Assembly (NCBI GenBank): GCA_963810755.1
Contig: CAWEOP010000006.1
Coordinates: 465,057-529,056, forward strand
Length of the DNA stretch: 64,000 nt
Direction: 5' to 3'
From: an uncultured Gammaproteobacteria bacterium
Lineage (GTDB): Bacteria; Pseudomonadota; Gammaproteobacteria; Steroidobacterales; Rariloculaceae
Part shown: piece after piece, positions 4,563-59,811 of the stretch
How positions within the stretch are numbered: the stretch's first letter is position 1
Layout: each line of letters begins with the position of its first letter
Made by a program: the position numbers and the translations under genes
Notes under the pieces: model-generated
Told to the model about the DNA's origin: nothing
Seen by the model: only the letters and a program-made list of their open reading frames with translations
The model's database searches: none

Positions 4563-4564
4563 TC

Positions 4565-8562: not shown

Positions 8563-8769
8563 GCGCGCCGAGCCGCCAATTTTTCCGAAACGCTCGACAG
8601 CGGACGCCGTGAGCAACGGCTGATCACGAGGGGCGCGGCTTCATGGGAACGACGCGCCGCGCTCGTCACAATTCGTCATAGTTCGGCGCCGCTTGGCCAC
8701 GATTCGCCGCCGCGCTGCCCGCACCGCGGCGCGAAATGCCACCCCAGGATTCCTACTGGGAGTGCGCCG

Positions 8770-11778: not shown

Positions 11779-11925
11779 GCTCTGCCACCCGCGGCGTCAC
11801 GCGTCGCCGCCGCTCCTTTGCCGGCGCGCGACGCTTCGCCGGCTCGCGGCGCCTTTGCCGGCTCGCGGAGCGGGGCTACACTCCGCGCAGCCATCCCGAG
11901 CGATCGCGAGATCGAGGAACGCTGC

Positions 11926-19635: not shown

Positions 19636-19645
19636 GGTCGCGGCC

Positions 19646-20716: not shown

Positions 20717-21066
20717 GGCGATGATTCCTTCGAAGTCGAGTCAGTCGAGCTAGTTAGTACGAATCGCGCGCCAGCCCGGCGACATCGAGCGCGCGCGGCG
20801 CCGAATCGGGGCGCTCGCCTCGCAACGGACCCGCGCGGACGGTGAGCGGCGTGCTGCGCGGCGCCGCCGTACCGTGGCTGAAACCCGCGCCGCGCAAGGG
20901 TTTCACGGCTGGGAGAACTTTTGGAGCTTTCTTGGGGGAAGAAAGGACGAAACGCGCAGGACCTCGCTGCCGCGATTCGAAGAATGACGCCCCAGCGCCG
21001 GCCGCATTGGGCGGCGACGGCATCAACCACTGACTGCTGAATCAACCCTTGGGAGGGATTTACGCC

Positions 21067-22062
21067 ATGCAAACCGCAACCTTGTCCAACGACGTTTCCG
21101 TTCTGCCAGGCTACGAGCTTGCGCCCGCGGCGAACGATGCTTCGACGACTCCGCGCTACGCGCGCACCATCAAGGTGTCCAAGCACGTGCGCTGGGATAT
21201 CGACGCCGACGTGATCCGCGGCCGCGACTTCGACGACACGCGGACGTTCCTGCCGAACGGCTTGTCCAAGGTCGACGACCTCGAGATCCTGAGCGCGACC
21301 GAACGCCGGCTGCTGAGCCAGGTTCAAGGCCGCACCTACGCGTACATGTTCGGCCTCGTGGAGCGCTTCATCGGCGCGAAGGTGCTCGAGCTATCGGGGA
21401 ACCATTGGCTCGGGGATCAAGTGGCGCTCGAGGCGCTAGTTCGATTCTCCGACGAGGAGCTCAAGCACCAGGAGCTGTTCCGCCGTCTCGACGTCATGCT
21501 CGCCGCCCGCATGCCGGCGGGCTACCGCAAGACCGCGGAGCCGAACGCGATTGCCGAGTTCGTGCTCGGCAAGAGGACGTGGGCCGTGCTCGCGCTCACG
21601 GCGCACATCGAGCTCTTCTCGCAGTCGCACTACGTGCAGAGCATCGCGCCGCAAGAGTATCTGTGCCCCCTGTGGAAGGACGTGTTCATGTACCACTGGC
21701 GCGAGGAAAGCCAGCACGCGGTGCTCGACGAGCTCGAGTGGCGTGCGGAGAACGCGCGGATCTCGGCGGCCGAACGCGACGCGGCGGTGGACGACCTCAT
21801 CGCGCTCGTGGCGGGCGTCGACGGCGTGCTGCAGGCGCAGTCGGCGGCCGACGCGGAGTACTTCGCGGCGATCAACGCACGCCGCTTCACGGCGACGGAG
21901 CGGGAGCGCATCGCGGCCGGGCTGCTGCGCGCGTACCGGTGGCAGTACATCGTCTCGGGAGCGCAGCACCCGCGGTTCACCGAGCTGCTCCAAGAGATGA
22001 CGACGCCGGCGCAGCTGCAGCGCATCGGCGCGGCGCTCGCGCCGATCGTGCAAGGGGCCTAG
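21067..22062 (+). CDS. ferritin-like di-iron oxygenase (AurF-like family, tentative)
   Basis: ATG 21067 preceded by GGGAGGG. Two ExxH motifs (SDEELKHQE, WREESQHAV) in a helical protein with additional E/H-containing helices. Confidence 0.65.
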   Translation: MQTATLSNDVSVLPGYELAPAANDASTTPRYARTIKVSKHVRWDIDADVIRGRDFDDTRTFLPNGLSKVDDLEILSATERRLLSQVQGRTYAYMFGLVERFIGAKVLELSGNHWLGDQVALEALVRFSDEELKHQELFRRLDVMLAARMPAGYRKTAEPNAIAEFVLGKRTWAVLALTAHIELFSQSHYVQSIAPQEYLCPLWKDVFMYHWREESQHAVLDELEWRAENARISAAERDAAVDDLIALVAGVDGVLQAQSAADAEYFAAINARRFTATERERIAAGLLRAYRWQYIVSGAQHPRFTELLQEMTTPAQLQRIGAALAPIVQGA

Positions 22063-33172: not shown

Positions 33173-34140
33173 ATGCGCACGTTACTTATGATGTCTCGCG
33201 GCGCTCTGCGTGCGAACGCTCGGGCGCAGACGCCTGCACCCGCGCAAGCGCCTCTGACCGTCCCGAACGGTCTGCCGGCACGGTGCTTTCAACATCCCGG
33301 ATCCCGTGCAGCCCAATGCGCCGCCGATCACAGGCACGGTCCGCGTGCCGGGCAGCACGAAGGAGTACGACGCCGCGGCCATCGCGGGCAACGCCAATCC
33401 GCCGGACTGGTTTCCCGACGAGCACCCGCCGGCACCGCAAGTGGTTGCCGGCCCGGCGCCGAATGCGTGCGGCTCGTGTCATCTCATGTCGGGTCAAGGC
33501 CACTCGGAGTCGGCCGACATCGCCGGCAGCTCCCACCGAATACCTCATTCGACAAATGAGTGACTTCAAAAGCGGCGCGCGCAAGGAGGAGACCAGGATG
33601 GGGCCGATTGCGCGCGCGACGTCGGACGACGATGTCCGACTCGCAGCGGCGTATTACGCGGCTATCCGGCCGATCCCGTTCGTCAAGTAGTCGAAACGGC
33701 CACGCCGCCGAAGACCTACGTGAGCGTCGTCGCGCGCCACCGCATTCTCGCGCCGGACGGCGGGACGGAGCCGATCGGCCGGCGTATCGTCCAGATTCCC
33801 GAAGACCCGTTTCGCACGAATATTCGCGACCCGCGCTCGGGCTTCATCGCTTACGCGCCGCCGGGAAGCGTTCGCCGCGGAGAGGGGCTCGTGAAGACGG
33901 GCGACGGCGGGAAGACCGTTCCGTGCGGAATGTGCCACGGCGATGCGCTCCTCGGTGCTCGGTGAGGTACCGCGTCTCGCCGGCATGCAACCCGTCTACA
34001 TCGCGCGGCAGTTGATCACGATGCAAAACGGCACCAGCGCCGGCGCGAAAGCGGCGCCGATGAAGGAAGCCGTCGCGAAGCTATCGGAAGACGACATCAT
34101 CGCGATCGCGGCTTACTTAGGCTCGCTCCCGCCTCGCTGA
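33173..34140 (+). pseudogene. di-heme c-type cytochrome, frameshifted as assembled (at least 4 frame changes)
   Basis: Heme motifs CGSCH (ORF 33306..33563) and CGMCH (ORF 33720..33965). Linking pieces YLIRQMSDFKSGARK... and PRLAGMQPVYIARQLITMQNG...DDIIAIAAYLGSLPPR*. Confidence 0.7.
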
Positions 34141-35298
34141 GCGGGATCGCTGCCGCCCATTCGCGTGCGTCCAGCGCTCGTCAGTCGAGGCCAACAACTG
34201 CTCGACCACCGTCGCGACGGGAATTACGTGCCCGTACTCGCCGACGTTCACCAAGAAGGAGACTCGCTCCGTCATGTACTCCTGGGTGCTCGCAGAGTAG
34301 ACCTCCTTGGCGGCGAGGCCTTTCACGCCGGAAAAACAACAGTTGTCGAATTCATTGTAGATCTCCACGTGCCTGCGACGCGGCTGAAAACCGCCCGCCG
34401 CTTCGTAGAGCGCTTGGTAGCTCAGCAGCCGAAATACGTGTGGACCGTATTGTTCCCAGTCGCCGAGGTCGTCCGTCCCGTCGAGGTCCGGTGTGCGCAG
34501 CTCGATCGGCAAGGTTCCCCGCTACGCTCACGGATCTCGTTATTCTCCAGTCCAACGCGGCGTAATTCGTCGTCGCCCCACCGCCACCACTGCGACCGGT
34601 CATGTGAATGGTTCGATACTTCGGCCCGAGATAATCGATCGCGCGATTGATGTGATTGAAGAAATACGCTAGGGCCGACTCACCTGGTTGATCGACGGAG
34701 CAAACCAGTTGTGCAGCTTGCCGGTGTAGGTGGTTCCGTTGAAATCGATCGTCTGGCCGCAGTTCGTCGCCAATAGGGGCATATCGAGGTAGAGGACGTC
34801 TGCGCGTTCGAGAACGCGTGCGATCAGGTCATTCGCGTCCGGCAAGACGTATCCGCCATACGCGCGAGCGACGTGCATGCCATGTGGCCCTCGTGGTAGA
34901 TGACGAGGACGTCGTGCCTCGTCGAGAACAGGAAAGCACGATAGGTTGTCCCGAGCGACTGTATCTGGAGCTCATCGCAAATCGGTGGTGTCAGCAGATC
35001 GGGGATTTGTTCCTCGTGCTCGGAGCAAGAGGAGGACAACACCGTTCCAGAACTATCTCGAACGAGACCTTCCTGGCGCAGTGTGTTGCGCGTCTGCACT
35101 GCACGGCGCTCGCCTTCTGGCGCTGTCGGGCGTTCTGTCCGGCCAATTCGTTTGAGCCACCTGACTCTGTGCAGCTGCCTGCGGTTGTTCCTGTTGCTTT
35201 AGATCTTCTTGTGCCACAGCTTCGCAGCCGGCGACGGCGACGGCGACGAGAGAAAGCACTAGAGCGTCCAACCTAAACCGAGAATCCATGACCGTCAC
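34117..35298 (-). pseudogene. alpha/beta-hydrolase-like lipoprotein in a lower-GC patch, frameshifted as assembled
   Basis: Lipobox LVAVAVAGC (ORF 35053..35298). Pieces VLVIYHEGH, HVARAYGGYVLPDAN..., nucleophile elbow IHMTGRSGGG (GxSxG), ...EYGHVIPVATV. At least 4 frames used. The 3' end is uncertain. Confidence 0.5.
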
Positions 35299-35540
35299 GA
35301 GATCTTCCCAAGCACCAAAACCGGTCCGAGACTTTATGTCGTATCGCCGCGCTGAGACTGTGCAGCGCTTCGCGGTCTTCCCGCGGCGAAAAGGATCGCC
35401 GTCACACTTTTCCGACAGGATTGTTTCGCGAAACAGGTGCGATAGTTAGCCGGCTCTATTTGGCGGTCCGCGGAGGGGCGGGATGCGCGTGTGCTACCGC
35501 CGCAGTCACGGGGTGGCTATGATCGGCGCCTCTGTAGCAA

Positions 35541-36533
35541 ATGAGACAACGCATGCGCACGACACTCGCCTTTCGCACTTACTTACTCTGCGTTCTGATC
35601 GTGGCGAGCGGTCTCGGCTTGCGGGACGCGGTCGCACAAAGCGCTCCGCTCGCGCAGAGCGCCGCCGCAGCGCAAAGCGCGGCGAGCTGCGACAACGCCT
35701 GCCTGAAGGGCTTCGTCGACGGCTACATCGACGCGCTCTCGCATCGCGACGCCACGAAGCTGCCCGTGGCCAAAGAGGTGAAATACACCGAGAACGGCCG
35801 CGTGCTCGATCTCGGCGAAGGCTTCTGGCACACGGCCGGCGCGCCGATCCCCTATCGCGACTACATTCTCGATCCGAGCACGGGCAGCGTGGCCGTTTCA
35901 CGGCGCTGAAGGAGTACGACGCCACCGCGGAGATGTTCGTGCGCCTGAAGGTCGCGAGCGGCAAGATCACGGAGATCGAGACGTTCGTCGTGCGCGTCGG
36001 CGACCAGCGCTGGTTCGCGCCGCAGAACCTCGAGCACCTGTCCGACATCTTCGCGCAGACGGTGCCGGCCGCGCGAGCGGCACACGCGCGAGCAGCTCGT
36101 CGCGACGGCCGAACTCGTATTTCGACGCGATCCAGACCGAGGGCACGCCGCAGTTCAAGCAGGCGCCGTTCGCACCCGGCATGAAGCGGTTCGAGAACGG
36201 CTTGCAGACCACGAACGTGACGGAGAAGCCGATCATGGAGCGCCACACGTGGAGCCCGGATCTACAGCTCGAGCGTGCGTCGTACAAAGGCACGATGGTC
36301 ATGGACCGGCGTCTTCCGATCGTCGACGTCGAGCACGGCACGGTGCTCGCCGTCGGCACGTTCCGGCGCGAAGGCCCGGATACTTCCACGCTGCTCTTGG
36401 CCGAGATGTTCAAGGTCACGGCGGCAAGCTGCGCGAGATCCGCGCGGTGATCCTGAACTTGCCGAACGGCGCTGGCACGGGTGGACGTCTTCGCATTGAC
36501 ACGCACCACGACTCGCCGCGAGCTCCGCGCTGA
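35541..36533 (+). pseudogene. secreted protein with N-terminal CDxxC, paralog of 56043..56981, frameshifted as assembled
   Basis: Signal + SCDNACLKGFVDGYIDAL...VKYTENG aligns with ACDRACLKSTLDSYLQAV...YRHTENA of the intact paralog. Later pieces are in two other frames. The 3' end is uncertain. Confidence 0.6.
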
Positions 36534-37406
36534 TCGCGGCCGGCGCCGCGGCCGGCGCGTATCGCAGGAACACGTGGGCGCAGCGCCCACTGCCGGCTCG
36601 CACGATCCCGAGCACGGGGGAGCCGTTGCCGATCATCGGGCTCGGGTCGTCGGCCGTGTCGGAGATCGCGGAGCACGGCGCGGAGCGTGTCGAAGGCGTC
36701 GTGCGCGCGTTGGTCGAGCACGGCGGCAAGGTCGTCGACACGTGGCCGCGCAACGCGGACAACGACGGCGCGTTCGGGCAGATCATCGACGCACCCGATC
36801 TGCGCGGCCGGTTGTTCGTGACGGTGAACCTCGAGCAGACGGAGCGGCAGGCCGGAATTGCTCAGCTCGAGCGCGCGCTGCGCGCCTATCGGCGCGACTC
36901 GATCGATCTCGTGAACGTGGGCAGCCCATGGGCCTCGACGTGCACTGGCCGAGCCTCAAGAATCTGAAAGAAGCGGGCCGAGCGCGCTACATCGGCGTGA
37001 CCGCCGCGCGCGCGGAGCTTTACGATCAGCTCGAAGCGTTCCTGCGCACCGAAACGCCGGACTTCGTCGAGATCAACTACTCCGTCACGGAGCGCGAAGC
37101 GGAGCGGCGCTTCCTCCCGATGCTCGCGGAGCGCGGCATCGCGACGTTGATCAGCCGGCCGTTCATGAACGGCGCCTACTTCGAGCGCCTCGCGAACGCG
37201 CCGGTGCCCGACTGGGCCGCGGAATTCGAATGCGCGAGAGCTGGGCGGATTTCTCGCTGCAGTACATCCTCGCTACGGCCGTCACCTGCGTGCTCACGGA
37301 GACGACGAACGCGGCGCACATGACGGAGAACGCGCTCTGCGCCCTGAAGCCGATACCCGATGCCGCGGCGCGGCAACGGATGCGTGAGGTCATCGACGCG
37401 GCGTAG
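36481..37406 (+). pseudogene. aldo/keto reductase with Tat-like leader, frameshifted as assembled
   Basis: Leader VDVFALTRTTTRRELRA + LIAAGAAAGAY (needs one frame change). PIIGLGSSAV, DTWPRNADNDG, IDLVNV, YIGVTAA..., ...LATAVTCVLTETTNAAHMTEN... ends at TAG 37404-37406. Confidence 0.7.
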
Positions 37407-37463
37407 ACCCTCGCGTCGGGCGCTGCCCGCTCCCACCGTGAGCTGCACGCGCACTGCCGGTGT

Positions 37464-38672
37464 ATGATCGAGCGCGCTCCTCGGAGACACTCGTGCGCAA
37501 GCCCAGCCCACACTCGCGTCTCGCGCCGCACCTTCGTTCGCACGACCGCCGCCGCGGCCGTCGCGTTCGGCGCCCCTTCGGTCGTGCGCGCGCAAAGTCC
37601 GCTCACGCTGCGCTTTCGCACGATCCGCGACCCCGACGGCTGGTACCCGAGCCTGCGGCTCAAGGGCGACTGGCTGATCTTCGAGGTCAGCGACGGCGTT
37701 CTGTCGGGCTTCGGCGAAGCCTCGCACAGCATGGACGACGAAGGCTGCAAGCGAACCGCGGCCGGCCTGTTCGTCGAGCACTACGCGGGCTTTTCGCCGT
37801 CGCTCGAGAACCTGGCGCGCAAGGAGAGCGAGATCGCGGCGCTCGAGCCCGACTTCGTGACCGCAACGGCATTCTCCGGGATCAACCAAGCGCTTTACGA
37901 CCTGCTGGCCAAACGCGAGCGCGTGCCGGTGTGGCAGCTGTTCAGGAGCGGCACGGCGTTCCACGGCCTGCCGCTCTACACGACGATCAATCGGGCGCTG
38001 CAGACGCGCACGCCGGAGGAATACTCCGCGGTCGTCGGTGAGCTCCAGGCACTCGGATTCAAGACCTACAAGTGCGCGCCCTTCGAGGCCGTGAACAGCC
38101 CGGACCACGCCGTCGAGAAAGCCGCGGCGGGCTTGGCGACGCTCGCGCGGCTGCGCGAGCAATTCCCGGACCTCGCGGTACGCGTGGATTTCCACGAGCG
38201 ATTTCAGCCGAAGGACTTCTACGCGCTGATACCGGAGCTCGAGCGCCTGAAGCTCGACTGGCTCGAGGAGCCGTTCCCCGTCGGCCCGACCTACGACGAG
38301 CTCAAGCGCAAGACGCACCTGCGGCTGTCGGGCGGCGAGCTCTTCTGGGGCAGGCGCCGCTTCGAGGAAATCACCGAGCACCGCTGGGTCGACGTGATCA
38401 TGCCGGACGTGAAGCACTCGGGCGGCTTCGGCCCGCTGCTCGACGTGATGCGGATGGGCGCGGGCAGGATCGAGATCTCGCCGCACAATCCGTCGGGCCC
38501 GATCTCGACGGCCGCGAGCCTGCACGCCGCGGCCGTCTATCCCGACCTCGTCCGCTCGCTCGAGTACTCGTTCGATCGCAAGCAGACGCGGCGCAGCACG
38601 GGCGAGACGATCGAGAACGGCGTGCTGCTGCTCAGCGACAAGCCGGGCTGGGGCGTAGAACCGCCGGCGTGA
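37464..38672 (+). CDS. enolase-superfamily (mandelate racemase/muconate lactonizing enzyme family) protein with Tat signal
   Basis: 402 aa, intact. SRRTFVRTTAAAAVAFGAPSVVRA twin-arginine leader. Barrel motifs VRVDFHERF, WLEEPF, LSGGELF, DVIMPDVKHSGG. Confidence 0.85.
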   Translation: MIERAPRRHSCASPAHTRVSRRTFVRTTAAAAVAFGAPSVVRAQSPLTLRFRTIRDPDGWYPSLRLKGDWLIFEVSDGVLSGFGEASHSMDDEGCKRTAAGLFVEHYAGFSPSLENLARKESEIAALEPDFVTATAFSGINQALYDLLAKRERVPVWQLFRSGTAFHGLPLYTTINRALQTRTPEEYSAVVGELQALGFKTYKCAPFEAVNSPDHAVEKAAAGLATLARLREQFPDLAVRVDFHERFQPKDFYALIPELERLKLDWLEEPFPVGPTYDELKRKTHLRLSGGELFWGRRRFEEITEHRWVDVIMPDVKHSGGFGPLLDVMRMGAGRIEISPHNPSGPISTAASLHAAAVYPDLVRSLEYSFDRKQTRRSTGETIENGVLLLSDKPGWGVEPPA

Positions 38673-38847
38673 GCGAGCGCGCGGGCGATCGCCTAAGGAC
38701 GCGCCGCGCTCGCAGACTCGACGACGTCGCGTTGATCGTCGGCTACGAAGATTCGGGCGGGTCGCGTAGGCGTGATTGGACGACTAGTCGATCTCGTCTG
38801 GAGCAGCGCGTGCGGATACTCGGTCCGCGCGCTGTTGCCATTCCCGT

Positions 38848-39314
38848 TCATCGCGTTGCAGCCGTCTCCGGATCACGGCATGCACGTGCGCGACGAGCCT
38901 CATCTCCCGCGTGCCGAGTCCGCTGTAGTGCGATCACCCATGAGAATTCGCACGCATGCGTCGCAGCCAACTCGCGCCGCCCCCCGCGGTGTCAGCGCAA
39001 TGCGGATCGAACGTCGGTCGAATGGATCGGGCAAGAGCTCCAGCAACCCCGCGCGCGCCGCTACGATAACGCCTTTACGCGCGGCCTGCTTCGATACGCC
39101 TAGCATGCGCGCCACTCCGAGATCGATGGATCGCCGCCGACTGCGCTCGAGTGCGGATAGGAGGCGGTACCGCGCGTCAGTCCGAAACACGAGCTCGCCG
39201 CGCGTCGCCGCGGGCCTTTTGCATCAGCTCCGCGGTAGCCGCGATCTCGCGGACGAACTTGACGGCCTCGTTGCGCCAGAGTTTCCCGGCGTATCGCCGG
39301 CGCTCGCGATGCAT
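38848..39314 (-). pseudogene. MarR-family regulator, frameshifted as assembled
   Basis: Core in ORF 38900..39190: DARYRLLSALE...SIDLGVARMLGVSKQAARKGVIVAARAGLLELLPDPFDRRSIRIALTPRG. N-terminal helix (YAGKLWRNEAVKFVREIAAT...) and C-terminus are in other frames. One shift is at a G6 run. Confidence 0.5.
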
Positions 39315-39413
39315 CGCGTCCGCTTGCGACTCGGGCGCGAGGTCCTTGAGCGCACTGCGTAACGCATCGTCACGCGTATCGGGAGAACGCATACGCGCAG
39401 GGTGCACTTCTGC

Positions 39414-39497
39414 AATCGACAAGTGCGGCGTCGAATCTCGCCCGATCGACAAATTACCTGTCGATCGGCGCGAAATCGAATCTCGGGCTGTCGATCG
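39414..39497. promoter_or_regulatory. cluster of operator-like repeats upstream of the MarR gene
   Basis: TCGAATCTCG at 39431-39440 and 39476-39485. Inverted repeat CGATCGACA (39443-39451) / TGTCGATCG (39459-39467). Third TGTCGATCG at 39489-39497. Half-site ATCGACA at 39415-39421. Confidence 0.35.
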
Positions 39498-39588
39498 AAA
39501 AAGCCCCTCCCAATCGCGACAAGGACGGAGCGCGCGCCGGCCCGTCCGCCATGCACCCGCATGAATTGCGCTGTCTGTCGGCCGCGCC

Positions 39589-40744
39589 TCAATAGCCCGC
39601 CGCCAAATCGACGACGGACAACAGCGCGTCACCTCTTATATAGCGGCGCACGTTCTCGGCGACCAAGACGAGCGTGCGCTCGTCGCGGATGTCCGAGCTC
39701 GTCGCGATGTGCGGCGTGATGATCACGTTGCGCATGCCCCAGAGCGGGTGGCCCGGGGGCAGCGGCTCCGGGTCCGTCACGTCGAGCCCCGCGCCGCCGA
39801 TCTTGTGCTGCTCGAGCGCGGCGGTGAGCGCGGCGGTGACGACGCTCTCGCCGCGCCCGATGTTGATGAAGAACGCGTCGTCCTTCATCGCGTCGAAGAA
39901 CTGCGCGTCGAACATGCCGCGCGTCTCGGGCGTCAACGGCGTCGCGTTCACGACCACGTCCGCGCGCGCCGCAAGCGTGCGATATTCGTCCGCGAGACCC
40001 ACGTACTCGACGTAGTCCGGCCCTTCGCGCCGGCTGTTGCGCGTCGCGATCACGTGCATCCCGAGCGCGTGCGCGCGCTTCGCGACCTCGGTGCCGATCC
40101 CGCCCAAGCCCACGACGAGCAGCGTCTTTCCCTTCGACCTCGCGCAGGCGCTCTTCGCGCAGCTCGCGAAACCCGCGGCTCCACGCACCCGCGATCTGCT
40201 CCGCTTCGTACTGCGGGAGCGCACGCGCGAGCGCGAGCATCAACGCAACCGCGTGCTCCGCCATGTGCGGCCCTTGGATGCGCTGCAGGTTCGTGACGAC
40301 GATGTCGCGCTGCGCGACCGCTGGAACCGTCGCGCAGCTATCCGCGCCCGCATTGAGCAGCTGGATCCATTTCAGGCCTTGGCCGCGCTCGATGATTCCC
40401 GGCGTGCAGAGCCCGATCAGGACGTCCGCGCCGGCGACGGCTTCGGTCATGGCCGCGAAATTTCTCAAGCCCGGCACGCCGACCACTTCGACGCCGGGCG
40501 CGATGCCGCGGAGTGCGTCCGCGATCTCCACGTCGGCCACGACGATGCGCTTCGGCGGAGCCCAGCCCTTGCGCTCGCGGACGGGCGTCGGCGCCTCGCG
40601 CAGCTCGAAGCGCTCGATCAGCGCGGCCGCGGCGGCGCACAGGTTGTCGCAGCCCGCGGCCGGCTGGGCCGGGGTCCGCGCGGCGGGTATCGCGAGCGCG
40701 GCGGCTGCGATCAGCGCGGCGCAAAACCGGTTGGGCGACAGCAC
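39589..40744 (-). pseudogene. D-isomer-specific 2-hydroxyacid dehydrogenase with about 60-aa signal-bearing N-extension, one frameshift as assembled
   Basis: MLSPNRFCAALIAAAALAIPAARTPA leader. Catalytic-domain start KRIVVADV... Frame change at the TTTCCC run near 40127-40133. NAD motif GKTLLVVGLGGIGTEVA, ...NIGRGE..., ...ITPHIA... Confidence 0.8.
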
Positions 40745-40876
40745 GAGCGTCTACCCTACCGATCTTGCGCAGCGACGCGCGTCGAGTGCCAAACGCCGGC
40801 GACCAGCAAAGCAGTGATCACCACACCGCGAGCGGTTGCACGAAAAGCATCGAACGACGCGGCTGCGCTGGCTGCC

Positions 40877-41926
40877 ATGTCGGGTGCTCCGTTGACCGGA
40901 GCGAACTATACTCCGTTCGTGAAAACCCTCGGCGCTCTGGTCGCTCTTGCTGCTGCTCGCAGCAACCGCTCACGCGCACCACTCCGCCGCGATCTTCGAC
41001 CGCGAGTCGGTCATCGAGGTCGAAGGCGTGATCACCGAGGTCGCGTGGGTCAATCCGCACGTGAAGCTCAAGATGCGCGGCGCAGTACCGGGCGGCACCG
41101 AGCACGTCTGGGACATCGAGTCGAACTCGGTCAGCATCGTGAGCCGGTTCGGGCTGTCGGAGGAGCTCATCCCGGTAGGCCAACGCGTGAAGGTCGCGGG
41201 CAACGGCGGCCGCGGCCGCGACGACATCCTCTGGATCACGAACCTGCTGCTGCCCGACGGCAGGGAGATCCAGTTCGGCGACTTCATCCCGGCACGCTGG
41301 TCGCAGCAGCTCGTCGGCAAGGACACTCGCCGCGCGGTGACGGCGGATACCGGCAATCGCGGCATCTTTCGCGTCTGGACGAACGCGGGCTGGCTCTGGA
41401 ATGACCAAATGCCATTGACGCCGGCGGCCACGGCCGCGCGCCAGACGTTCGATCCCGTCAAGAACGATCCGACCGCGAACTGCGCGCCGAAGGGGATGCC
41501 GTACGCGATGGAGCAACCGTATCCGCTCGAGTTCGTCGACAACGGCGACGAGATCCTGCTGAAGCTCGAGGAATACGACGCGGTGCGTCACATCACGCTG
41601 ATCGCCGCGCAATGCGGTGACGCGTGAGCGCGCCCGCTCGCCGCTCGGCACTTCGTTCGGCCGGTGGGACGGGAAGGCGCTCGTCGTCGAGACGATCGAC
41701 ATCGACTACCCGTATCTGAACGGCACGCGGCATTCCGCTCGGACCGGACGTGCGCACCGAGGAACGATTCTCGCTGAACGCGGACGGCAGCCGGCTCGAG
41801 TACACGCTGACGGTGACGGATCCGACCACGTTCACGGAGCCCGCCGAGTTCACGAAGGCGTGGGAGTGGCGGCCCGGGGAGCAAGTGAAGCCGTACGATT
41901 GCCAGCGGTCGGCGCCGATCCGCTGA
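40877..41926 (+). pseudogene. DUF6152-like + Cys-bracketed domain fusion (family copy 5), paralog of 11926..12927, frameshifted as assembled
   Basis: Leader in one frame (start ATG 40877 or GTG 40919). AHA|HHSAAIFD...WVNPHVKL...NCAPKGMPYAMEQPYPLEF in ORF 40947..41627. GRWDGKALVVETIDIDYP... and ...WEWRPGEQVKPYDCQ...* (TGA 41924-41926) in other frames. Confidence 0.75.
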
Positions 41927-42050
41927 GCGGTCTCGCAGCGCTTCCTCGCAGGCTCTGCTCGGCTCCACGCCGCGACCAGCAACCTGAACGATGGAGTCGA
42001 ACGAAATCGGCGCGCCACGCGCCGCCGGTCGACAAGACTCGGGGGACATC

Positions 42051-44265
42051 ATGCGCGGATGTATCCCGTTGGCCGTTGGCGCTGTCGCCGCGGCAATAGC
42101 CTCTCGCTTGCGCGCCGAAGGCGCCGAGCGGCGGCTCCGCCGGAGGCGTCGACGCACGCGCGCGCAGCTCCCACTGCACGGCGCCGCGGCCGTCGACGCC
42201 GCGCGCCTGCGCGCCGCGGACTCCGAGCCCGGCCATTGGATGTCCGACGGGCGCACACTACGATGAGCAGCGCTTCAGCCCGCTCGATCAAATCACCACG
42301 GACAACGTGCAGACTCGGGCTCGCCTGGTACGCCGATCCCGACCGAACCGCGGCCAGGAGGCAACACCGATCGTCGTCGACGGCGTGCTGTACGTGTCCC
42401 GCCTGGAGCAAGGTGTACGCGTTCGATGCGCAAGACCGGCAAAGAGCTCTGGAAATACGACCCGCAGGTGCCGCGTGAGTGGGCCGTGAACGTCTGCTGC
42501 GAAGTCGTGAATCGCGGCGTCGCCGCCTGGAACGGCAAGATCTTCTCGGCACCCTCGACGGCCGCTCGATCGCGCTCGACGCGGCGACCGGCAAGGAAGT
42601 GTGGAGCACGCTCACGATCGACCGGACATGCGAGCCTACTCGATCACCGGCGCGCCGCGCGTCGTGAAGGGCAACGTGCTCATCGGCAACGCGCGGCGCC
42701 GAGTTCGGCGTGCGCGGCTACGTGTCCGCCTACGACGCCGAGACCGGCAAGCGCGCCTGGCGCTTCTACACCGTGCCCGGCAATCCGGCCGACGGCGTTC
42801 GAGAACGCGGCGATGGAGATGGCCGCCAAGACCTGGAACGGCGAGTGGTGGAAGCTCGGCGGCGGCGGCACGCCGTGGGACGCGCATCGTCTACGACCCG
42901 AGACCAACCTGGTTATCTTCGGCACCGGCAACGGCGCCCCTGGAAGCCAGGCGCTCAGAGCCCCGGCGGCGGCGACAACCTGTTCCTCGCGTCGATCGTC
43001 GCGCTCGATCCCGACGACCGGCGAGTACGTGTGGCATTACCAGACCACGCCCGGCGAGACGCTGGGACTTCACGGCCACGCAGCCCATCATGGTCGCCGA
43101 ATCTCGACTCGGCGGAACGACGCGCCACGTCGTGATGCAGGCGCCGAAGAACGGCTTCTTCTACGTGATCGACGCGAAGACCGGCGAGCTGATTTCCGCG
43201 GACAACTTCGCGCCGGTGAACTGGGCGAGCGGCGTGGACCCGAAGACCGGCCGGCCGATCCAAAATCCCGACGCGCGCTTCGACCAGACCGGCAAGGTCG
43301 CGTTCGTCACGCCGACGGGACGCGGCGCGCACAACTGGCAGCCGATGTCGTTCAACCCGAACACCGGGCTCGTGTACTTCGGCTCGCGGCACAACGCGCA
43401 GGCCTACATCCCGATGCCAGCTAAGGACTTCAAGGTATCGAACGTCGGCACGAACGTCGGCCTCGTCCGCCCCGTGCCGGACGCGGTGACCGCCGAGCTC
43501 GAAGCGCGGCCGGACCTGCAGTTCGAGGATCGCGGCGCGATGCTCGGTTGGGATCCCGTCGCGCGCAAGCCGCGCTGGCGCTACGTCGACAAGAGCGGCG
43601 GCGGCGACGGCGGCACGCTCTCGACGGCGGGCAACCTCATGTTCGCGGGCGGCGGCGAGCGGCAGTTCATCGCGTACGACGCCGCGACCGGCGAGCGCAT
43701 CTGGCACTTCACGGCGCAGACCGGCGTGGCGGCGGGCCCGATCTCGTACGAGATCGACGGCGAGCAGTACGTCGCGGTCGCGGCCGGCCGCGGCCTGCAG
43801 CCGTACTACCAGCCGAACTATTCGCGTCTGCTCGCGTTCAAGCTCGGCGGCATCGGCGCAGCTGCCGCCGATGCTCGACTACACGCCGCCCGCGCTCGAT
43901 CCGCCGGAGAGCACGGCCGTCCGCGGAGGTCCTGACGCGCGGCGCCGCGGTGTACGGTCAGAACTGCGTCCAGTGCCACGGCAACACGATCGGCACGTTT
44001 CCGGACCTGCGCGTGTCTCCCGCGATCAAGAGTCGCAGGAGCTATTCGACGCGATCGTGCTGAACGGCGCGCGCGCGGCGAACGGCATGGTGTCGTTCGC
44101 GCTCGCAGGTGACTCCCGAGGATGCGCGCGCGGTGCGCGAGTACGTGATCACGCTCGCGATTCAGGAGAAGGGTGTGCAGGCTGCGGCGGCCGCGCGCGC
44201 AGCCGCCGGCTTCCGCCCGCGCCGCGGCGGCCGCGACGAACGAGGCGCAACCGCACGACAATTGA
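42051..44265 (+). pseudogene. type-II quinohemoprotein alcohol dehydrogenase (PQQ propeller + C-terminal cytochrome c), heavily frameshifted as assembled
   Basis: Motifs in order but spread over all frames: RGQEATPIVVDGVLYVS, vicinal-Cys NVCCEVVNRGVA, LDGRSIALDAATGKEVW, GAEFGVRGYVSAYDAETGK, TPWD, NLFLASIVALD. Clean stretch 43.06-43.86 kb. Heme motif CVQCH. About 15 or more frame changes. Confidence 0.8.
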
Positions 44266-44279
44266 GTCGTCGAGCCGGG

Positions 44280-44914
44280 CTACTTTGTCTTTCGCCCAAT
44301 ACGGCTTCGGCTCGAGCTTCGCGTTCGCGAGCACGCGCGCGACGCCCGCCCGGCCTCGAGCGAGACGAGCGCGCCCGTCGAGTCGAGCTTCACGTCGGCC
44401 GCGAGCGACAGCGTGCCGTCGCCGTGCCCGTTGCCGTCCAAGTACAGCTCGATCACGCGTGTAGTCGAGCTTGTCGGCGCCGCGGGCGCCGATGACTCGG
44501 CAGCCACGGACCACGGCTTGAACTCGTAGCCGCCGATCGGCTTGTCGGTCACGAACGTGACGCGCTCTCCCTTGCGGCGTCGAAGACTGCGATGCGCGTA
44601 CTTCACCGAGTATCCGACGCCGCTGCCGCTCTGCCAGACGTAGCCGACCGTCGGCAGGCTCGCGAGCGCCTCGTGCACGCCGGACTCTTGCGCGAGCGCG
44701 GCCACGACGGCGCCGCGCGCCGCTTCGTCGGACCAGGCGCGCACGTCGACTCGGAGGCGTCACGCCGCTCGGGTCATCGCAGCCGTCGTCGCCGTGAACT
44801 TGTCGGGGACGACGGGCGGCGCCGCGTGCGTGCTACTGACGCCGGCAGCGGCTATCGGCCGGTCAGCACGACCACGTCGATTCTGGCGAAAAGTGTCGGG
44901 TTCGGATTCTTCAT
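44280..44914 (-). pseudogene. hypothetical protein, frameshifted as assembled
   Basis: GAGGAGG SD + ATG 44914 (MKNPNPTLFARIDVVVLTG) hits a stop after 20 codons. Continues in ORFs 44760..45032 and 44280..44744 (…VGYVWQSGSGVGYSVKY…VIELYLDGNGHGDGTLSL…). No family recognised. Confidence 0.35.
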
Positions 44915-45057
44915 GCTCTGCCTCCTCGTCCGGCTGACGCCGATGGCTTATGTGGGCGCTACGACGGCCGAGCCATACGCTTCGACCGGCGCCGATCTTT
45001 GTCAGCTCCGTGGAGTTTTTCAAGGGGTGCAAACGCCAGCGCCGCCGAAAAAGCGAT

Positions 45058-45690
45058 TCAACGGTTGGCGACGTTCGTTTCGCGCGTGAAAACGCGCTCT
45101 ACCACGACCGGGTCGGCCTTCTTCTGCTTGAGCCGTACGATCCAGTGCAGATCGTCGGCCCCGTCGAGCAGATAGGTTTCCGTGACCGTCGTGCCGTTCT
45201 CGTACTCGTGCACGACCTCGAAGACGTCGCCGTTCCAGCCGGCGCGCACGCTGCCATCGCGATCTTCCGACCGGCGGCCATGCTCGTAGGTCGCCGTGAG
45301 CGCGCCGCCGTAGTCGAACTCGGTGGCGGAGGCTTCTTGGAGGATCCGAATTTGCGTGACTACGCTGAGCGCCTGCTCGGCGCCGGGCAGGTCGTCCGCC
45401 TCGAGCGGCTCGGGCTCGTGGCCCGTGGGCAGCGGCAAGCTGCCGACCGGAATTCCGAAGACGTTGATACCCTTGATGACTTGGCGCCCGATACCGCTCC
45501 CGCCGCTACTGGAGGATTTTTCTTCGCGCGGACGAGCCGGATTGTCGCTGTGCGACTTGTCGAGCACCCAAGTGCCCGTGAGGTTCGGATGAGGAGCGGG
45601 CTGCGCCACCGCGCCGATCGCGATGAATGCGAGCACGGCAAGCGCCGCACGTAACGGCACCGGCCGCAGAGCTGTTCTTGCGTTGACCAT
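45058..45690 (-). CDS. secreted hypothetical protein (GxW start, no Cys pair)
   Basis: AAGGAG SD + ATG 45690. Signal ...AFIAIGAVAQP. PNLTGTWVLDKSHS... 210 aa. Read from the lower part of ORF 45058..46233. Confidence 0.6.
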   Translation of the reverse strand: MVNARTALRPVPLRAALAVLAFIAIGAVAQPAPHPNLTGTWVLDKSHSDNPARPREEKSSSSGGSGIGRQVIKGINVFGIPVGSLPLPTGHEPEPLEADDLPGAEQALSVVTQIRILQEASATEFDYGGALTATYEHGRRSEDRDGSVRAGWNGDVFEVVHEYENGTTVTETYLLDGADDLHWIVRLKQKKADPVVVERVFTRETNVANR

Positions 45691-45997
45691 TCGCGTTTCT
45701 CCTTCGCTCGCTTGCCGCCATCGTGCGAACGCGGCCGAGCATTCCACCGATAGCCTAGCGACGAGGCCGCCGACGAACCGTCGGTCGACTATGGGCAATT
45801 GTGACATCGGCACCGAACGTTCGACTCGCCGCCTCGGTGTTCGTTCGCGTGCTCGCCGCCGCCGAATACTGAACGTTGCGTCCCGTCGTTCAGCTTCGCG
45901 CTCGGCGCTATACTCCGGCAGCCCAACAAAATCACGTCGGCGGCCGTGCGACCGCGACAAGAAAGAATGAGCTTCAATCGAGCACTGGCCGTCCTGA

Positions 45998-46435
45998 TTG
46001 TCCCTGTCGTGCATAGCCGCGTTCGCGTGGCGGGTCGCTGCCGCGACGGGCGAGTCGTTCGACGTGCGCCTGTCGCCCGCGCCGCGCGACGCCGCGATGC
46101 GCAAGACCATCGCGGGCAAAGGTGCAGCGAAGGCCACGCTGGCCGGCAACCAGTTGACGATCGAAGGCACGTTCGACGGATTCCCTTCGCCCGCCACGCA
46201 TGCCGAGATCCATCGCGGGCCCGCGGTCGGCATGCGCGGTCCCGCGATCTACGAGCTCACCGTATCGAACGGAACGAGCGGCACTCTGTCCGGCTCGTTC
46301 ACGCTGAGCGACGACGCGCTCGCCGGGCTCAATTCGGGGCAGCTCTACATTCAGGTAGCGAGCGAAGGCGCGCCGGACGGCAACGTCTGGGGATGGCTGC
46401 TGCCGGCCGCCGCGCCGATCGTGAGGGACCGATGA
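45998..46435 (+). CDS. CHRD domain protein
   Basis: ATLAGNQLTIEGTFDGFPSPATHAEIHRGPAVGMRGPAIYEL...GQLYIQVAS is a CHRD-like pattern. TTG start at 45998, or ATG 45967 with a frame change in the leader. The stop overlaps the next gene's ATG. Confidence 0.7.
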   Translation: MSLSCIAAFAWRVAAATGESFDVRLSPAPRDAAMRKTIAGKGAAKATLAGNQLTIEGTFDGFPSPATHAEIHRGPAVGMRGPAIYELTVSNGTSGTLSGSFTLSDDALAGLNSGQLYIQVASEGAPDGNVWGWLLPAAAPIVRDR

Positions 46436-48621
46436 AACGTTTCGCGCGGGCTATCGCGACCATCGGGGCCATTCCTTGCGGCCGTGCTCGCGGCCGTGCT
46501 CGCCGGCGGCCCGACGAACGCGTGGGCGCAACCCGCCGCGCGCGCGCACACGGCCGCGCAAGCGCAAGCCGGTCGCGCGGTGTACGCGACGGAGTGCGCC
46601 ATGTGTCACGGCGCGGACCTGCACGGCGGCGCGGGGCCGCCGCTCGCGGGCCAAGCGTTTCTCGCTCGCTGGAGTCCGCGCACCGCGAGCGAGCTCTTCC
46701 AGTTCATCCAGGTCACGATGCCGCCCGGCATCGCAGGGCTCTTGTCCGCGGACGACTATTTGAGCGTCGTCGCGTTCATCCTCGAAACGAACGGCGCCGC
46801 CGCCGGAGAGCAGGCGCTGACGGCAGAGAGCGCGGTGTCCATCGGCTCTCTCGCGACGGCGACGGCACAGACGGCGGGCGCGGCGCAAGCGGCGAGCGCG
46901 CCGCAAGCGGCAAGCGCGCCGCAGAGCGAAGCCGAGGTCCCGCCGCTCGGCGTCATGGTCGCGGGCACCGTCACGAGCTTCGTGCCGCTCAGCGACGAGA
47001 AGCTTCGTAAGCCCGACGCCGGCGATTGGCCGATGATTCGGCGCGACTACGAAGCATCGAACTACAGCCCGCTCGACGAGATCACGCCGCAGAACGTTGC
47101 GAGCCTCCAGCTCGCGTGGGTCTGGTCGATGGCCGATCGCGACGGACGCGACGAGCCCGCGCCGATCGCCTACGACGGCGTGATCTACGTGAACAACCCG
47201 CCGAACGTGATGCAGGCGCTCGATGGGCGCACGGGCACGCCTGATCTGGCAGACGCGCATCGCAGTCGACGCTGAACTTCCATCCGATGCGCGGCAGCGC
47301 GCTCGCCGGCGACAAGATCTTCGTCGCGACCAATCAGGCGCACTTGCTCGCGCTCGACGCGCGCACCGGCGAGATCGTCTGGGAGACCGTGGTCGGCGAG
47401 CGCGAGAACGGCGACTTCACGGCGAGCAGCACGCCGCTCGTGATCAACGGCAAGGTCCTGATTGGCACGGGCACGTGCCAGCAGTACCGGCCCGACAAGT
47501 GCTTCATCGGCGCCTACGACGCGGCGACCGGCAAGGAGCTCTGGCGGTTTCGCACCGTCGCGCTCGACGGCGAGCCGGGCGGCGACACTTGGAACGGACT
47601 ACCGGATCTCTTTCGCGCGGGCGGCGACGTCTGGATCACCGGCAGCTACGACCCGGGCCTGAACCTCACCTATTGGGGCGTGGCGCAGGCCAAGCCGTGG
47701 ATGCGCGCGAGCCGCCAGTCGGGCAACGGCGCCCTGCTCTACACGGCGTCCACGCTCGCGTTGAATCCCGACACCGGCGAGCTCGCGTGGCATTTCCAGC
47801 ACGCGCCGGGCGAGACCGCCGATCTCGACGAAGCGTTCGAGCGCGTGATCGTCGACGACGCGGGCGAGAAGCTCGTCATGACGATCGGCAAGCCCGGCAT
47901 CTTGTGGAAGCTCGACCGCGAGACGGGCAAGTACATCGACCACAAAGAGACGATCCTGCAGAACGTCTTCACGTCGTTCGACCCTGAGACAGGGCTACCG
48001 AAATACCGCCAAGACATCGTGGACCAGCGTGTCGGCGAGTGGATCCAGATTTGTCCGGGCACCTCGGGCGGACACAACTGGCAAGCGGTGAGCTACAACC
48101 GCAAGTCGCGGCGGCTGATCATTCCGCTGATCCGCACCTGCAACGAGCTCAGCCCGCAGGCGGTCGACTTGAAGGCCGGGCTCACGAGCTACGGCGCCGG
48201 CGCACGCGGCTACGAGATGCCGGGCACGAACGGCAACATCGGTAAGCTCGCGGCCTACGACGTGCGCTCGATGCAGGAGCTCTGGTCGCTCGAGCAGCGC
48301 GTGCCGTTCATGACGTCGGCGCTGTCGACGGCGGGCGGCGTGATCTTCGTCGGCGACCTCGCGCGCTCGTTCAAGGCCGTGGACGTCGGCAGCGGCGACG
48401 TGCTGTGGGAGACGAAGCTCGGCACGTCGGTGCAGGGATTTCCGATCTCGTTCAGCGTCGACGGCAAGCAGTACGTCGCCGTGCCGACCGGGTATGGCGC
48501 GGGCGCGCCGCAGTTCTACACCGAGTGGATCATCGACGAGGAGCTGAACCTCTCGAGCAGCGGCAGCGCGCTGTACGTGTTCGCGCTGCCGGAGAAATCT
48601 GCCGGTAAACGGCCGCGGTGA
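46432..48621 (+). pseudogene. PQQ-type beta-propeller dehydrogenase with N-terminal cytochrome c domain, frameshifted as assembled (about 3 sites)
   Basis: MKRFARAIATIG leader. Heme motif CAMCH, then an Ala/Gln/Ser/Pro linker with a short tandem repeat. Propeller WPMIRRDYEASNYSPL...APIAYDGVIYV...(shifts near 47230-47290)...[12 protein letters not shown]...[10 protein letters not shown]...[10 protein letters not shown]... No vicinal Cys-Cys. Confidence 0.8.
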
Positions 48622-48646
48622 TCCCAGCGCGGCGCGCCTTGCAGCA

Positions 48647-50688: not shown

Positions 50689-52153
50689 TTACTTCTTCTC
50701 GTCGAAGTTGAAGAGATCCTCTTCCTTGGGCCGGTCCATGCCCTGCTCCCAGTACTTCTCCCAGATCTGCGCCCACGGCCGGCCGTAGATGTCGGGCACC
50801 TCGTACTCGATCACGTTGCCCGGCGACTCGGGCGTCGCGGTGCCCTTGACCGGGAAGATGGTTTGCACGCAGTCGATGAACACGTACGGATCGCCTTCGT
50901 CGAAGCCGCTCAGCTTCACGAAGTTGCGGACGATGCGCACGGGCTCCACCAGCGCCTCGGGATCGTAGAAGATCGCTTCGTGGTTGAGCCCCAGGAACTT
51001 GCCGCTCGCGTCGCGGTTCGGCGTGTAGATCTCGATCGTCTGCAGCTTGTTCGAGTGCTCGTACGCGGAGTGCACCTTCCAGCCCTGGATGTTCGACGTC
51101 CAGGTGATCAGCGTGTCCTTGTCCCAGAAGCCGATCGTCTCGCCGTACCAGCGCGGCACGTCCTGCCCCAGGCGCGGCACCGCGCCGTCCATGTTGAACT
51201 CGCGGCCGATGTGGATGTTGGTGATGAAGTTGCGCGCGACGCCGGCCAGGATCTGCACGAGCTCCGGCGTCACCATGATGTTGTGCTCCCACACCGCGGC
51301 CTCGTGCCAGCGGCGCATGAAGCCTTCGGGCCAGCAGTACTGCGACGGCCACATCGCCTTGTTCGAGTTGCCGTGGTGGTAGGCCTCCTGGACCATCCGC
51401 GTCTGATACTCCGGCGTCAGCAGCGACAGGATCGTCGGCATCTGCACGTGCCGCATGCGGTACCAGTACTGGTTGCCCGGCGTGCGTCCCGGGTGCATGT
51501 AGCGGCCGTTCCATTCGTCCGGCAGCGTCTCGTAGGTGTGCTTCGTCGGGCCGCCGCGCTTCTTCGTCTCCGCGAGCAGTGCTTCGTAGTGTGCCTGCGC
51601 GGTCTTGAACGGATACGGGCTCACGATCGCTTCGCGCGGATAGTCGCGGTCGCAATAGCCCCACGCCGCCGAGCCGGGCGGGTGATCGCCGATCAAGCTC
51701 GAGCGGTTGCCGCCCCAGAGGTCTTCGATCGCGGCCGGGCTGTTGCAGCGGAAGTAGCGCGGGTCGGTCCAGAGCGCGCGATCCTTGTAGAAATCCTTCG
51801 ACGTGAAGAGGTCCACTGTCGAGCGGCTTGATGCCCGGAGGCGAGTCGCCGTTGCGCGCGGAGCCGAGGAAGAAGGGTTCCGGAGGCGGTCCGGCTTGTG
51901 CCGGCTGCCCGGGCTGCGCGCCCTGCCCAGGCCGCGCGGCTTGGCCGCCTTGGCCAGGTTGGCCCGGGCCGCCGGGCCCCTGGGGTCTGCGAGACGTCGC
52001 GCCTGTCATCTCGTATTTGTTGATGTCCGCGGCGAGCGGCGCAGCGCGGCCGACGCTCACGAAATCGATTTTGGCGACGGTTTGGCCGGTGGCAGACGAA
52101 CCGACCAGTCCTGCCGCGGCGATGGCCAGGACGCCCACTACGTTGTTCTTCAT
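50689..52153 (-). pseudogene. large member of the Cys-bracketed family (copy 8), one frameshift as assembled
   Basis: GGGGGA SD + MKNNVVGVLAIAAAG signal, P/G/Q-rich linker. Frame change near 51817. Then [26 protein letters not shown]...[11 protein letters not shown]...[22 protein letters not shown]...FIDCV (ORF 50689..51816). Confidence 0.75.
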
Positions 52154-56981: not shown

Positions 56982-57168
56982 GGGAAACCCCCGGTTCTTG
57001 CTATCCGCTCGATCGTACACGAACGGCCGTTTGGCGCGCTCGCCGACCGCGCGGACGCAAATGTCGCCACGCCGCGGAAAGGGGTCCGCTGAGTTGAAAA
57101 CTGCGGCCGTGCTACGCTTCCGACGGAGCGCGCCTCAGAGCCGCGCAACGATAACCGGGGGTCTACAC

Positions 57169-59668: not shown

Positions 59669-59811
59669 GCAAAGCGCGCTGTCAATGGCTTGGTACCGCA
59701 GATCATGAGCCCGGTCCGACGACTGCCGCGACGCGCGAATGTGGGCAAGGTCGACCGAAATGCTCTAGATTGCGCGACGACGGTTCATCTTGCGACAACG
59801 AGGTCACGCTC

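Follow-up and report, generated by a model that had tools for sequence, protein, structure and literature searches.

Enzymes of the enolase superfamily, 2-hydroxyacid dehydrogenases and enzymes of the aldo-keto reductase (AKR) fold are treated as cytoplasmic in textbooks and by annotation pipelines, and it is known that cytoplasmic enzyme families can have exported variants. Among described systems, the glucose-fructose oxidoreductase (GFOR) of Zymomonas mobilis and the aldose-aldose oxidoreductase of Caulobacter (PMC4628093) are likewise nicotinamide-dependent enzymes of a normally cytoplasmic type, described there as acting on sugars in the periplasm. In the account given in PMC7317946, which cites Halbig et al. 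1999, GFOR needs twin-arginine translocation (Tat) because NADP is bound before export. Here, we analysed a stretch of 64,000 nucleotides from an uncultured Gammaproteobacteria bacterium of soil (contig CAWEOP010000006.1, positions 465,057 to 529,056), referred to as a whole as the window. Three neighbouring genes in it encode a protein of the AKR fold (AKR-like), an enolase-superfamily protein (ENO) and a protein of the D-2-hydroxyacid dehydrogenase family (HADH). An initial annotation had noticed export leaders on all three and had drawn the parallel to GFOR. We favour, with moderate confidence, the reading that all three proteins leave the cytoplasm as three separate cases, and not by one Tat pathway for cofactor-loaded enzymes.

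The intact orthologues in a 98% relative (locus L001, L001/L003) served as the reference for the frames and indels of the window. The genes and their leaders are listed below (a slash marks the predicted cleavage site):

36481-37406, + strand: AKR-like, AKR-fold gene with a Tat-type leader (Pfam Aldo_ket_red, 56 bits), a copy broken by several frameshifts
36481-36580, + strand: leader of AKR-like, MDVFALTRTTTRREL(L)ALIAAGAAAGAYRRNTWA/Q, with a 2-nt gap at 36527 relative to L001
37464-38672, + strand: ENO, enolase superfamily, mandelate racemase subgroup, intact (MR_MLE_C 120 bits, MR_MLE_N 26 bits)
37464-37592, + strand: Tat leader of ENO, ending in HTRVSRRTFVRTTAAAAVAFGAPSVVRA/Q, Tat motif conserved
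40744-39589, - strand: HADH, D-2-hydroxyacid dehydrogenase family, one frameshift (2-Hacid_dh_C 195 bits, 2-Hacid_dh 28 bits)
40667-40744, - strand: Sec-type leader of HADH, MLSPNRFCAALIAAAALAIPAARTPA/Q, hydrophobic region and AxA-like site conserved
40637-40651, - strand: CDxLC (CxxxC) of HADH, a few residues past the predicted cleavage site, where it begins a linker helix ahead of the dehydrogenase core

Families were assigned with Pfam and NCBIfam profiles on the corrected window proteins, with the NCBIfam equivalog cut-offs as the criterion for a specific function. The three families named initially held up in the Pfam searches. No NCBIfam equivalog cut-off was reached by HADH, AKR-like or ENO.

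To read the leaders, each corrected protein was searched against 5.8 billion proteins, and the N-termini of the best 120 hits were inspected per protein. Leader counts are taken over the full-length N-termini among these hits (108 for ENO, 106 for AKR-like and 116 for HADH), and catalytic-motif counts over all 120. The ENO leader, composed of a Tat motif [S/T]RRxF[V/L], an Ala-rich hydrophobic region (h-region) and a VRA/Q site, was present in 108/108 homologues. In the alignment, R21 and R22 are invariant and the sequence of the h-region drifts. With the profile TIGR01409 (TAT_signal_seq, cut-off 16.7 bits), the ENO leaders of the window, L001 and Opitutales scored 16.6, 19.2 and 17.6 bits, respectively; PF10518 matched too, at or near its cut-off. 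For AKR-like, the motif TRR[D/E]FL followed by an h-region and A-x-A/Q-R was found in 95-96 of the 106 homologues and an AxA-like site in 104; the remaining homologues appear to be called from a downstream Met. The AKR-like homologue leaders scored 15.0-21.2 bits with TIGR01409 and matched PF10399 and PF10518 as well. The leader of HADH is of another kind. In 116/116 homologues, a short n-region with basic residues precedes an uncharged h-region (median length 19 residues) and an A-x-A/Q-like site; only three of these homologues carry a Tat-like motif, and no TAT_signal profile (TIGR01409, PF10518) gave a match. The maximal 10-residue hydropathy rises from 1.80 in the ENO leader through 2.03 in that of AKR-like to 2.48 in that of HADH, an order that fits two Tat leaders and one Sec leader. 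The combination of an S/T-R-R-x-F-L-type motif, a moderate h-region (1.8-2.0) and an AxA site is thus found in ENO and AKR-like and not in HADH. HADH was rejected as a Tat substrate, given the missing RR motif, the more hydrophobic h-region and the lack of a profile match.

The region before the h-region is net positive in the leaders, and the stretch past it is approximately neutral in ENO, net negative in HADH and net positive in AKR-like. The charge pattern of ENO and HADH fits an N-in/C-out orientation. Together, the AxA/Q sites and the charge distribution argue for domains that face the periplasm and against anchors that leave them in the cytoplasm. The initial annotation had named such anchors, or leaders that vanish once starts and frames are corrected, as what would speak against export. 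The peptides it quoted are present in the sequence, they survive the correction, and the orthologues keep them. Judged by this conservation, the three leaders are family features and not start-codon artefacts. Because the leaders are conserved in hundreds of relatives, the three proteins probably work in the periplasm.

The Tat leader of ENO was read directly in Gammaproteobacteria-labelled metagenome-assembled genomes (MAGs; L004, L013), in Acidobacteriota/Vicinamibacteria, in Rhodospirillales (including L012), in Bryobacterales and in Candidatus Rariloculaceae, and it spans at least four phyla. In the ENO proteins of Opitutales and other Verrucomicrobia (L021-L025), a lipobox-like (F/M)LGC comes after the RR motif in place of VRA/Q, which suggests that the Opitutales proteins are Tat-exported lipoproteins that reach the same compartment by another route. 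The ENO proteins of L028 and L030 appear to be without leader, or truncated or frameshifted. Among the GTDB species genomes, the clade was found in MAGs only.

The catalytic residues of ENO are of the GalD type within the mandelate racemase subgroup. Both Pfam domains, PF13378 (MR_MLE_C) and PF02746 (MR_MLE_N), score above their gathering scores, so that the two-domain architecture is complete. D242-x-H244 (D242-F-H244), E268 (EEP), E292 (GE), D315 (PD) and H341 (PH) are invariant in an alignment of 22 sequences, and the motifs of the metal ligands (D/E/E, the carboxylates that end strands 3-5 in this subgroup) and of the His-Asp dyad (strands 7 and 6) are present in 118-119 of the 120 homologues. 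These motifs align to 'LDFHGR/IEEP/GE/PD/PH' of 3rr1, a putative galactonate dehydratase. The best PDB sequence matches, 2qq6 and 3rr1, are structural-genomics proteins and reach only 78-90 bits. The best NCBIfam match, the galactonate dehydratase model NF010624, gave 99.7 bits at a cut-off of 311. On these scores, the kinship to galactonate dehydratase holds at the subgroup level only. ENO shares with GalD/DgoD and related acid-sugar dehydratases the two-domain MR_MLE build, the metal ligands, the DxH motif and the Asp-His pattern. It differs from them in the remote scores and in the conserved Tat leader, or Tat motif with lipobox-like site, which predicts a periplasmic location. By its motifs and its distribution, ENO is a distinct, uncharacterised and widely distributed clade of acid-sugar-dehydratase-like enzymes of the mandelate racemase subgroup.

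HADH has an intact dehydrogenase core. The motifs GLGGIG, ATRNSRR, IGRG, DPEP and TPH are invariant, and in the general forms GxGGIG, AT[RK]xSx[RK], GRG, PEP and TPH they occur in 118-120 of the 120 homologues. G212-G217, R297, E326 and H345, aligned to 8hpg and 3evt, are invariant and found in 119-120 of the 120, so that both the GxGxxG motif and the Arg-Glu-His triad are in place. ATRNSRR is a 2'-phosphate motif rich in Arg and, if enzymes of the GRHPR/GhrA type are a guide, suggests NADP. The fold, GxGxxG, the R-S-R-type 2'-phosphate motif and the Arg-Glu-His triad are shared with GhrA/GhrB, GRHPR and 2-ketogluconate reductase, and the PDB matches reach 114-169 bits, including 8hpg, 2gcg and 9m0t. 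Unlike GhrA/GhrB and GRHPR, HADH carries a leader and a linker helix with CxxxC, and some members of its clade are fused behind exported domains. The comparison with GFOR reveals a further difference: GFOR is a Gfo/Idh/MocA protein that is exported by Tat with NADP loaded, whereas HADH is a 2-hydroxyacid dehydrogenase with a Sec-type leader. Preloading of the cofactor is impossible for HADH because its leader is of the Sec type.

The N-terminal extension of HADH had been described as 60 residues with a hydrophobic leader. The extension is real; of its length, only ~26 residues are leader and ~35 residues form a linker of the mature protein, in which the AlphaFold2 (AF2) model has a helix at residues 34-46. 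The CxxxC motif follows the cleavage site in 115 of the 116 full-length homologues, with C32 and C36 invariant. HADH was also considered as a lipoprotein and rejected: no lipobox of the form L-[ASTVI]-[GAS]-C is present, as the first Cys comes 5-8 residues past AxA/Q and the residues at -3 to -1 vary and are frequently polar. In a profile search that covered 1.84 billion cluster representatives, the exported clade proved to be broad. Among P0372-P0478, it includes fusions of 550-670 residues in which a signal peptide and a metallo-beta-lactamase-fold domain (PF00753) stand ahead of the same linker helix and dehydrogenase. In the fusion P0375, a 3-keto-disaccharide hydrolase domain replaces the metallo-beta-lactamase-fold domain ahead of HADH.

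As a side observation, a C-D-x-x-C motif a few residues past the predicted cleavage site, followed by a helix-like stretch, occurs in three exported proteins of the window (35688, +; 40651, -; 56906, -). The carriers are a DUF8021-like protein (SCDNACLKGFVDGYIDAL), HADH (GCDNLCAAAAALIERF) and the product of the open reading frame (ORF) 56043-57134 (ACDRACLKSTLDSYLQAV), which has no Pfam match and looks like a paralogue of the DUF8021-like protein. The motif could be a disulfide cap.

AKR-like has the fold of the aldo-keto reductases and has lost most of their catalytic residues. The Pfam score of 56 bits stands against a cut-off of 24, in agreement with an (alpha/beta)8 barrel, and the AF2 model has a pLDDT of 86. 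Its best Foldseek matches are L-galactose dehydrogenases, AKR11 and AKR14 (TM ~0.72, 15-20% identity), and the top 50 are all of the AKR fold (AKR enzymes and one Kv channel entry) with TM ~0.7. The catalytic tetrad D-Y-K-H of the aldo-keto reductases reads D-R-N-G/N in AKR-like, with the Asp kept (D84). In profile alignments to 7smi, 7ezi and 4mhb, the Tyr falls on R88, the invariant Arg of DTWPR, or on the next residue, the Lys on the invariant N114, and the His on a gap or on G145/N143. The substituted motifs are themselves conserved: among the 120 homologues, DTWPR occurs in 119, T-x-N in 118 and DLxNVGS in 118, and the canonical T[TS]K in none. The Asp-Tyr-Lys-His tetrad is thus replaced in the three profile alignments and in 118-119 of the 120 homologues. 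Additionally, in a motif-by-motif comparison, the canonical AKR strand motif 'IPKS' presumably corresponds to 'LTET' in AKR-like. Since the Tyr, Lys and His of the tetrad are missing, the default assumption of a canonical NADPH reductase was dropped, and judged by these residues AKR-like is probably not an NADPH-dependent or hydride-transfer reductase. In comparison with L-galactose dehydrogenase, AKR11 and AKR14, the (alpha/beta)8 barrel is shared, and the differences are the exchange of Tyr, Lys and His for Arg, Asn and Gly/Asn, the Tat leader and the low identity. The Tat export of cofactor-loaded enzymes that the initial annotation proposed fits neither AKR-like, which has lost Tyr, Lys and His, nor HADH, whose leader is without a Tat motif and looks Sec-type.

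The surroundings of the three genes are rich in exported proteins (cytochromes c, pyrroloquinoline quinone (PQQ) dehydrogenases, DUF6152, CHRD and DUF8021). The nearest of these are:

35541-36470, + strand: exported protein upstream of AKR-like on the same strand, frameshifted (precomputed DUF8021 in L001)
40947-41627, + strand: DUF6152 protein (Pfam DUF6152, 72 bits)
41813-44000, + strand: PQQ quinohaemoprotein dehydrogenase, in the window broken up into three or more frames, L001 orthologue intact

The DUF8021-like protein carries a signal peptide followed by CDNAC, as read in the sequence, and its orthologue in L001 (5962-6873) stops at the called start of AKR-like. In L001, the PQQ quinohaemoprotein dehydrogenase is a single protein of 734 aa with PQQ and Cytochrome_CBB3 domains. 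The PQQ dehydrogenases mentioned initially as neighbours are indeed present, with three genes in the window at ~41.8-44.0 kb, 46.4-48.6 kb and 56.9-59.1 kb.

To assess which of these associations recur, the ORFs of 33 ENO loci were clustered, and the ENO-HADH pair was counted in the 18 loci with an ENO of at least 70% identity. A convergent HADH gene lies directly downstream of ENO in 9/18 loci. The pair is found in L001 and L002, which have entirely different flanks, and in a MAG labelled Rhodospirillaceae (L012). AKR-like behaves differently. In the window, it is separated from ENO by 58 bp, and in L001 an S41 peptidase gene and an ORF of 130 residues intervene. No locus other than these two has an AKR-like gene within 8-10 kb of ENO. 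Three AKR-like loci on other contigs have unrelated neighbours, with PQQ genes near two of them. A conserved three-gene operon was rejected on this synteny, as only the ENO/HADH pair recurs, and the link of AKR-like to ENO and HADH is local to this lineage.

Among the neighbours of ENO, DUF6152 recurs most often (13 of the 33 loci), followed by an exported NHL-repeat propeller (9 loci; in L005, L007 and L012 it lies immediately upstream of ENO and on its strand), a PQQ quinohaemoprotein dehydrogenase (6 loci), a PQQ glucose/sorbosone dehydrogenase (GSDH, 429 bits; 4-5 loci) and a 3-keto-disaccharide hydrolase (4 loci, Opitutales). The neighbours and fusions of ENO and HADH point, by association only, to extracytoplasmic sugar or sugar-acid chemistry. 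In L005, L007 and L012, a common block (~4400-10300 in each) consists of GSDH (-), the exported NHL propeller and ENO (both +, almost gapless) and a convergent HADH; it is flanked by DUF6152 and a PQQ quinohaemoprotein dehydrogenase.

These results can be combined into the following proposal for three separately exported proteins. PQQ dehydrogenases would supply aldonolactones or aldonates in the periplasm. ENO would be exported in the folded state via Tat and would dehydrate an acid sugar to a 2-keto-3-deoxy acid in the periplasm. HADH would be exported unfolded via Sec, would acquire its nicotinamide cofactor outside the cytoplasm and may interconvert a 2-keto and a 2-hydroxy acid, most likely one that is made or used by ENO. 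AKR-like would be a Tat-exported TIM barrel of the AKR fold. Because a Sec-type leader is combined with an invariant NADP-type site, HADH would have to load its cofactor outside the cytoplasm or work unlike its relatives. A periplasmic sugar-acid module is plausible but unproven. Of the sugar or sugar-acid oxidation route suggested initially, the part that concerns ENO and HADH is plausible from their neighbours, and the part that included all three genes falls, as the three-gene unit is not conserved.

Several points weigh against the proposal. No periplasmic cofactor source is known for a Sec-exported NADP enzyme. ENO and HADH are convergent and not co-transcribed, operon structure being judged from spacing and strand only, and no more than half of the related loci have them side by side. 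The AKR-like gene shows no conserved association with ENO or HADH, and since its indels lie outside homopolymers, the window copy may be a real pseudogene. A few distant relatives of HADH (e.g. P0399 and P0410) have no leader. What was observed directly is the conservation of leaders and motifs and the synteny counts; localisation is inferred from motifs, simple physico-chemical measures and conservation, as are, on their own evidence, substrates and pathway. No substrate can be named, because no equivalog cut-off was reached.

An alternative is that the three proteins are exported and functionally unrelated, in a region rich in periplasmic proteins where the adjacency of ENO and HADH reflects shared ancestry. 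The density of exported proteins around them would be expected in this case, ENO and HADH converge and are missing as a pair from half of the related loci, and most loci that contain it belong to named Gammaproteobacteria MAGs. Against this, the pair persists despite the entirely different flanks of L001 and L002 and in the Rhodospirillaceae-labelled L012. Additionally, GSDH and NHL genes lie beside ENO, and a 3-keto-disaccharide hydrolase stands beside ENO and is, independently, fused to HADH. We consider a lack of any functional relation unlikely.

A more ambitious version of the module is that soil bacteria of several phyla run it with a Tat-exported ENO dehydratase and a Sec-exported NADP-type HADH, and that usable pyridine nucleotide is acquired or retained in the periplasm. 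HADH might then bind NADP tightly after export and follow a GFOR-like ping-pong cycle, or a small periplasmic NAD(P) pool might exist. At present, we regard this version as speculative and distinctly improbable.

It is very doubtful that a single NAD(P)-linked route for sugars or sugar acids unites the three enzymes in the periplasm and that its redox enzymes are exported with their cofactor loaded, like GFOR of Zymomonas. The leaders conserved in all three proteins and the PQQ dehydrogenases and c-type cytochromes that flank the genes are what such a route would predict, and GFOR provides a precedent for Tat export of an NADP-containing enzyme, as presented in PMC7317946 with reference to Halbig et al. 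1999. However, the enzyme with the intact NADP site, HADH, bears the Sec-type leader, and the Tat-exported AKR-like lacks the catalytic Tyr, Lys and His. Furthermore, AKR-like adjoins the others only in the window and in L001, where the peptidase gene and the further ORF separate it from ENO.

That the leaders arose as artefacts from erroneous starts or frames, or are uncleaved anchors with the catalytic domains still on the cytoplasmic side, is scarcely credible: the window is full of frameshifts and its ENO start is lengthened by a 1-nt indel relative to L001, yet hundreds of homologues of equal length from independent assemblies carry the same leaders, their sequence varies while the RR motif and AxA/Q stay fixed, as in signal peptides, the N-terminal flank is net positive with a neutral (ENO) or negative (HADH) C-terminal flank, the Opitutales ENO swaps the cleavage site for a lipobox-like FLGC, and the Cys pairs are conserved just past the cleavage site.

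Full-text literature searches for enolase-superfamily, mandelate racemase, AKR or 2-hydroxyacid dehydrogenase proteins with a Tat leader or signal peptide found no description, and on periplasmic sugar-acid dehydratases only a general review turned up. The homologues are named only generically ('galactonate dehydratase', 'D-2-hydroxyacid dehydrogenase', 'aldo/keto reductase'), and the relatives of all three proteins come from uncultured MAGs. Soil metagenomes contain hundreds of members of the exported clades. If the proteins are true periplasmic enzymes, oxidative sugar metabolism in the periplasm would extend beyond the steps of PQQ/FAD dehydrogenases to dehydration and 2-keto acid chemistry, and the Sec-exported, NADP-type HADH raises the testable question of where its periplasmic nicotinamide cofactor comes from. 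For annotation, the name 'reductase' is unsuited to the AKR-like family.

The window (G+C ~67%) was compared with its closest relative to account for the broken genes. The ENO protein of the window matches P0001, encoded on a 593-kb contig, at 100% identity and P0002 at 98%. The contig of P0002 (L001/L003), part of the uncultured Gammaproteobacteria MAG MFD00392.bin.2.65, shows synteny to the window with 87-98% identity and carries intact copies of all three genes. For AKR-like, one frame correction had been reported initially; at least three frame changes were found (0 to 1 near 36527, 1 to 0 near 36927 and 0 to 2 near 37232), and the copy differs from the L001 orthologue by six indels of 1 or 2 nt plus three of 3 nt that keep the frame. 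HADH has one frameshift relative to L001, near 40127 inside a T/C homopolymer, which had gone unmentioned. The called ENO start of the window is extended through the 1-nt indel relative to L001. In a blastn comparison with L001, gap openings per aligned base were most frequent where the blocks were least alike (19 in 1,929 bp at 87% and 70 in 6,853 bp at 91% identity) and rarest in the 98% blocks (1-3 per ~1,200 bp). In other contigs of the same project (MFD, nanopore), gene calls are fragmented as well. Since the L001 genes are intact, gap openings are many and other contigs of the project show fragmented calls, long-read consensus error is the simplest explanation of the window frameshifts. 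Only the HADH indel sits in a homopolymer. In the segments 41813-48629 and 35493-37402, the genes for the PQQ quinohaemoprotein dehydrogenase, the DUF8021-like protein and AKR-like are split over frames and their L001 orthologues are intact, which could be assembly error or gene decay.

The window also differs from L001 in gene content. It is without the S41 peptidase and the 130-residue ORF that lie between AKR-like and ENO in L001 (7787-9990), and it has three extra segments (34140-35493, 38717-39587 and 41103-41813). The first falls in the 2-kb bin with the lowest G+C content of the window (61%), the second contains a MarR-like fragment (38900-39190, - strand; 22.7 bits, below the cut-off), and the third completes the DUF6152 gene. 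The remaining ORFs of these window-specific insertions gave no Pfam match. A scan of 35300-41000 for promoters and terminators returned no promoter-like site, and terminator-like sites were fewer than in shuffled sequences. Four large ORFs elsewhere in the window have no Pfam match at E <= 0.001 and a coding-like G+C content at third codon positions (0.85-0.92): 18556-19854 (-), 21034-22062 (+), 50689-52005 (-) and 59662-61302 (+). Several DUF6152 genes occur per locus, at 11779-12927 (+) and 40947-41627 (+) in the window and at 1055-1513 and 12468-12689 in L001.

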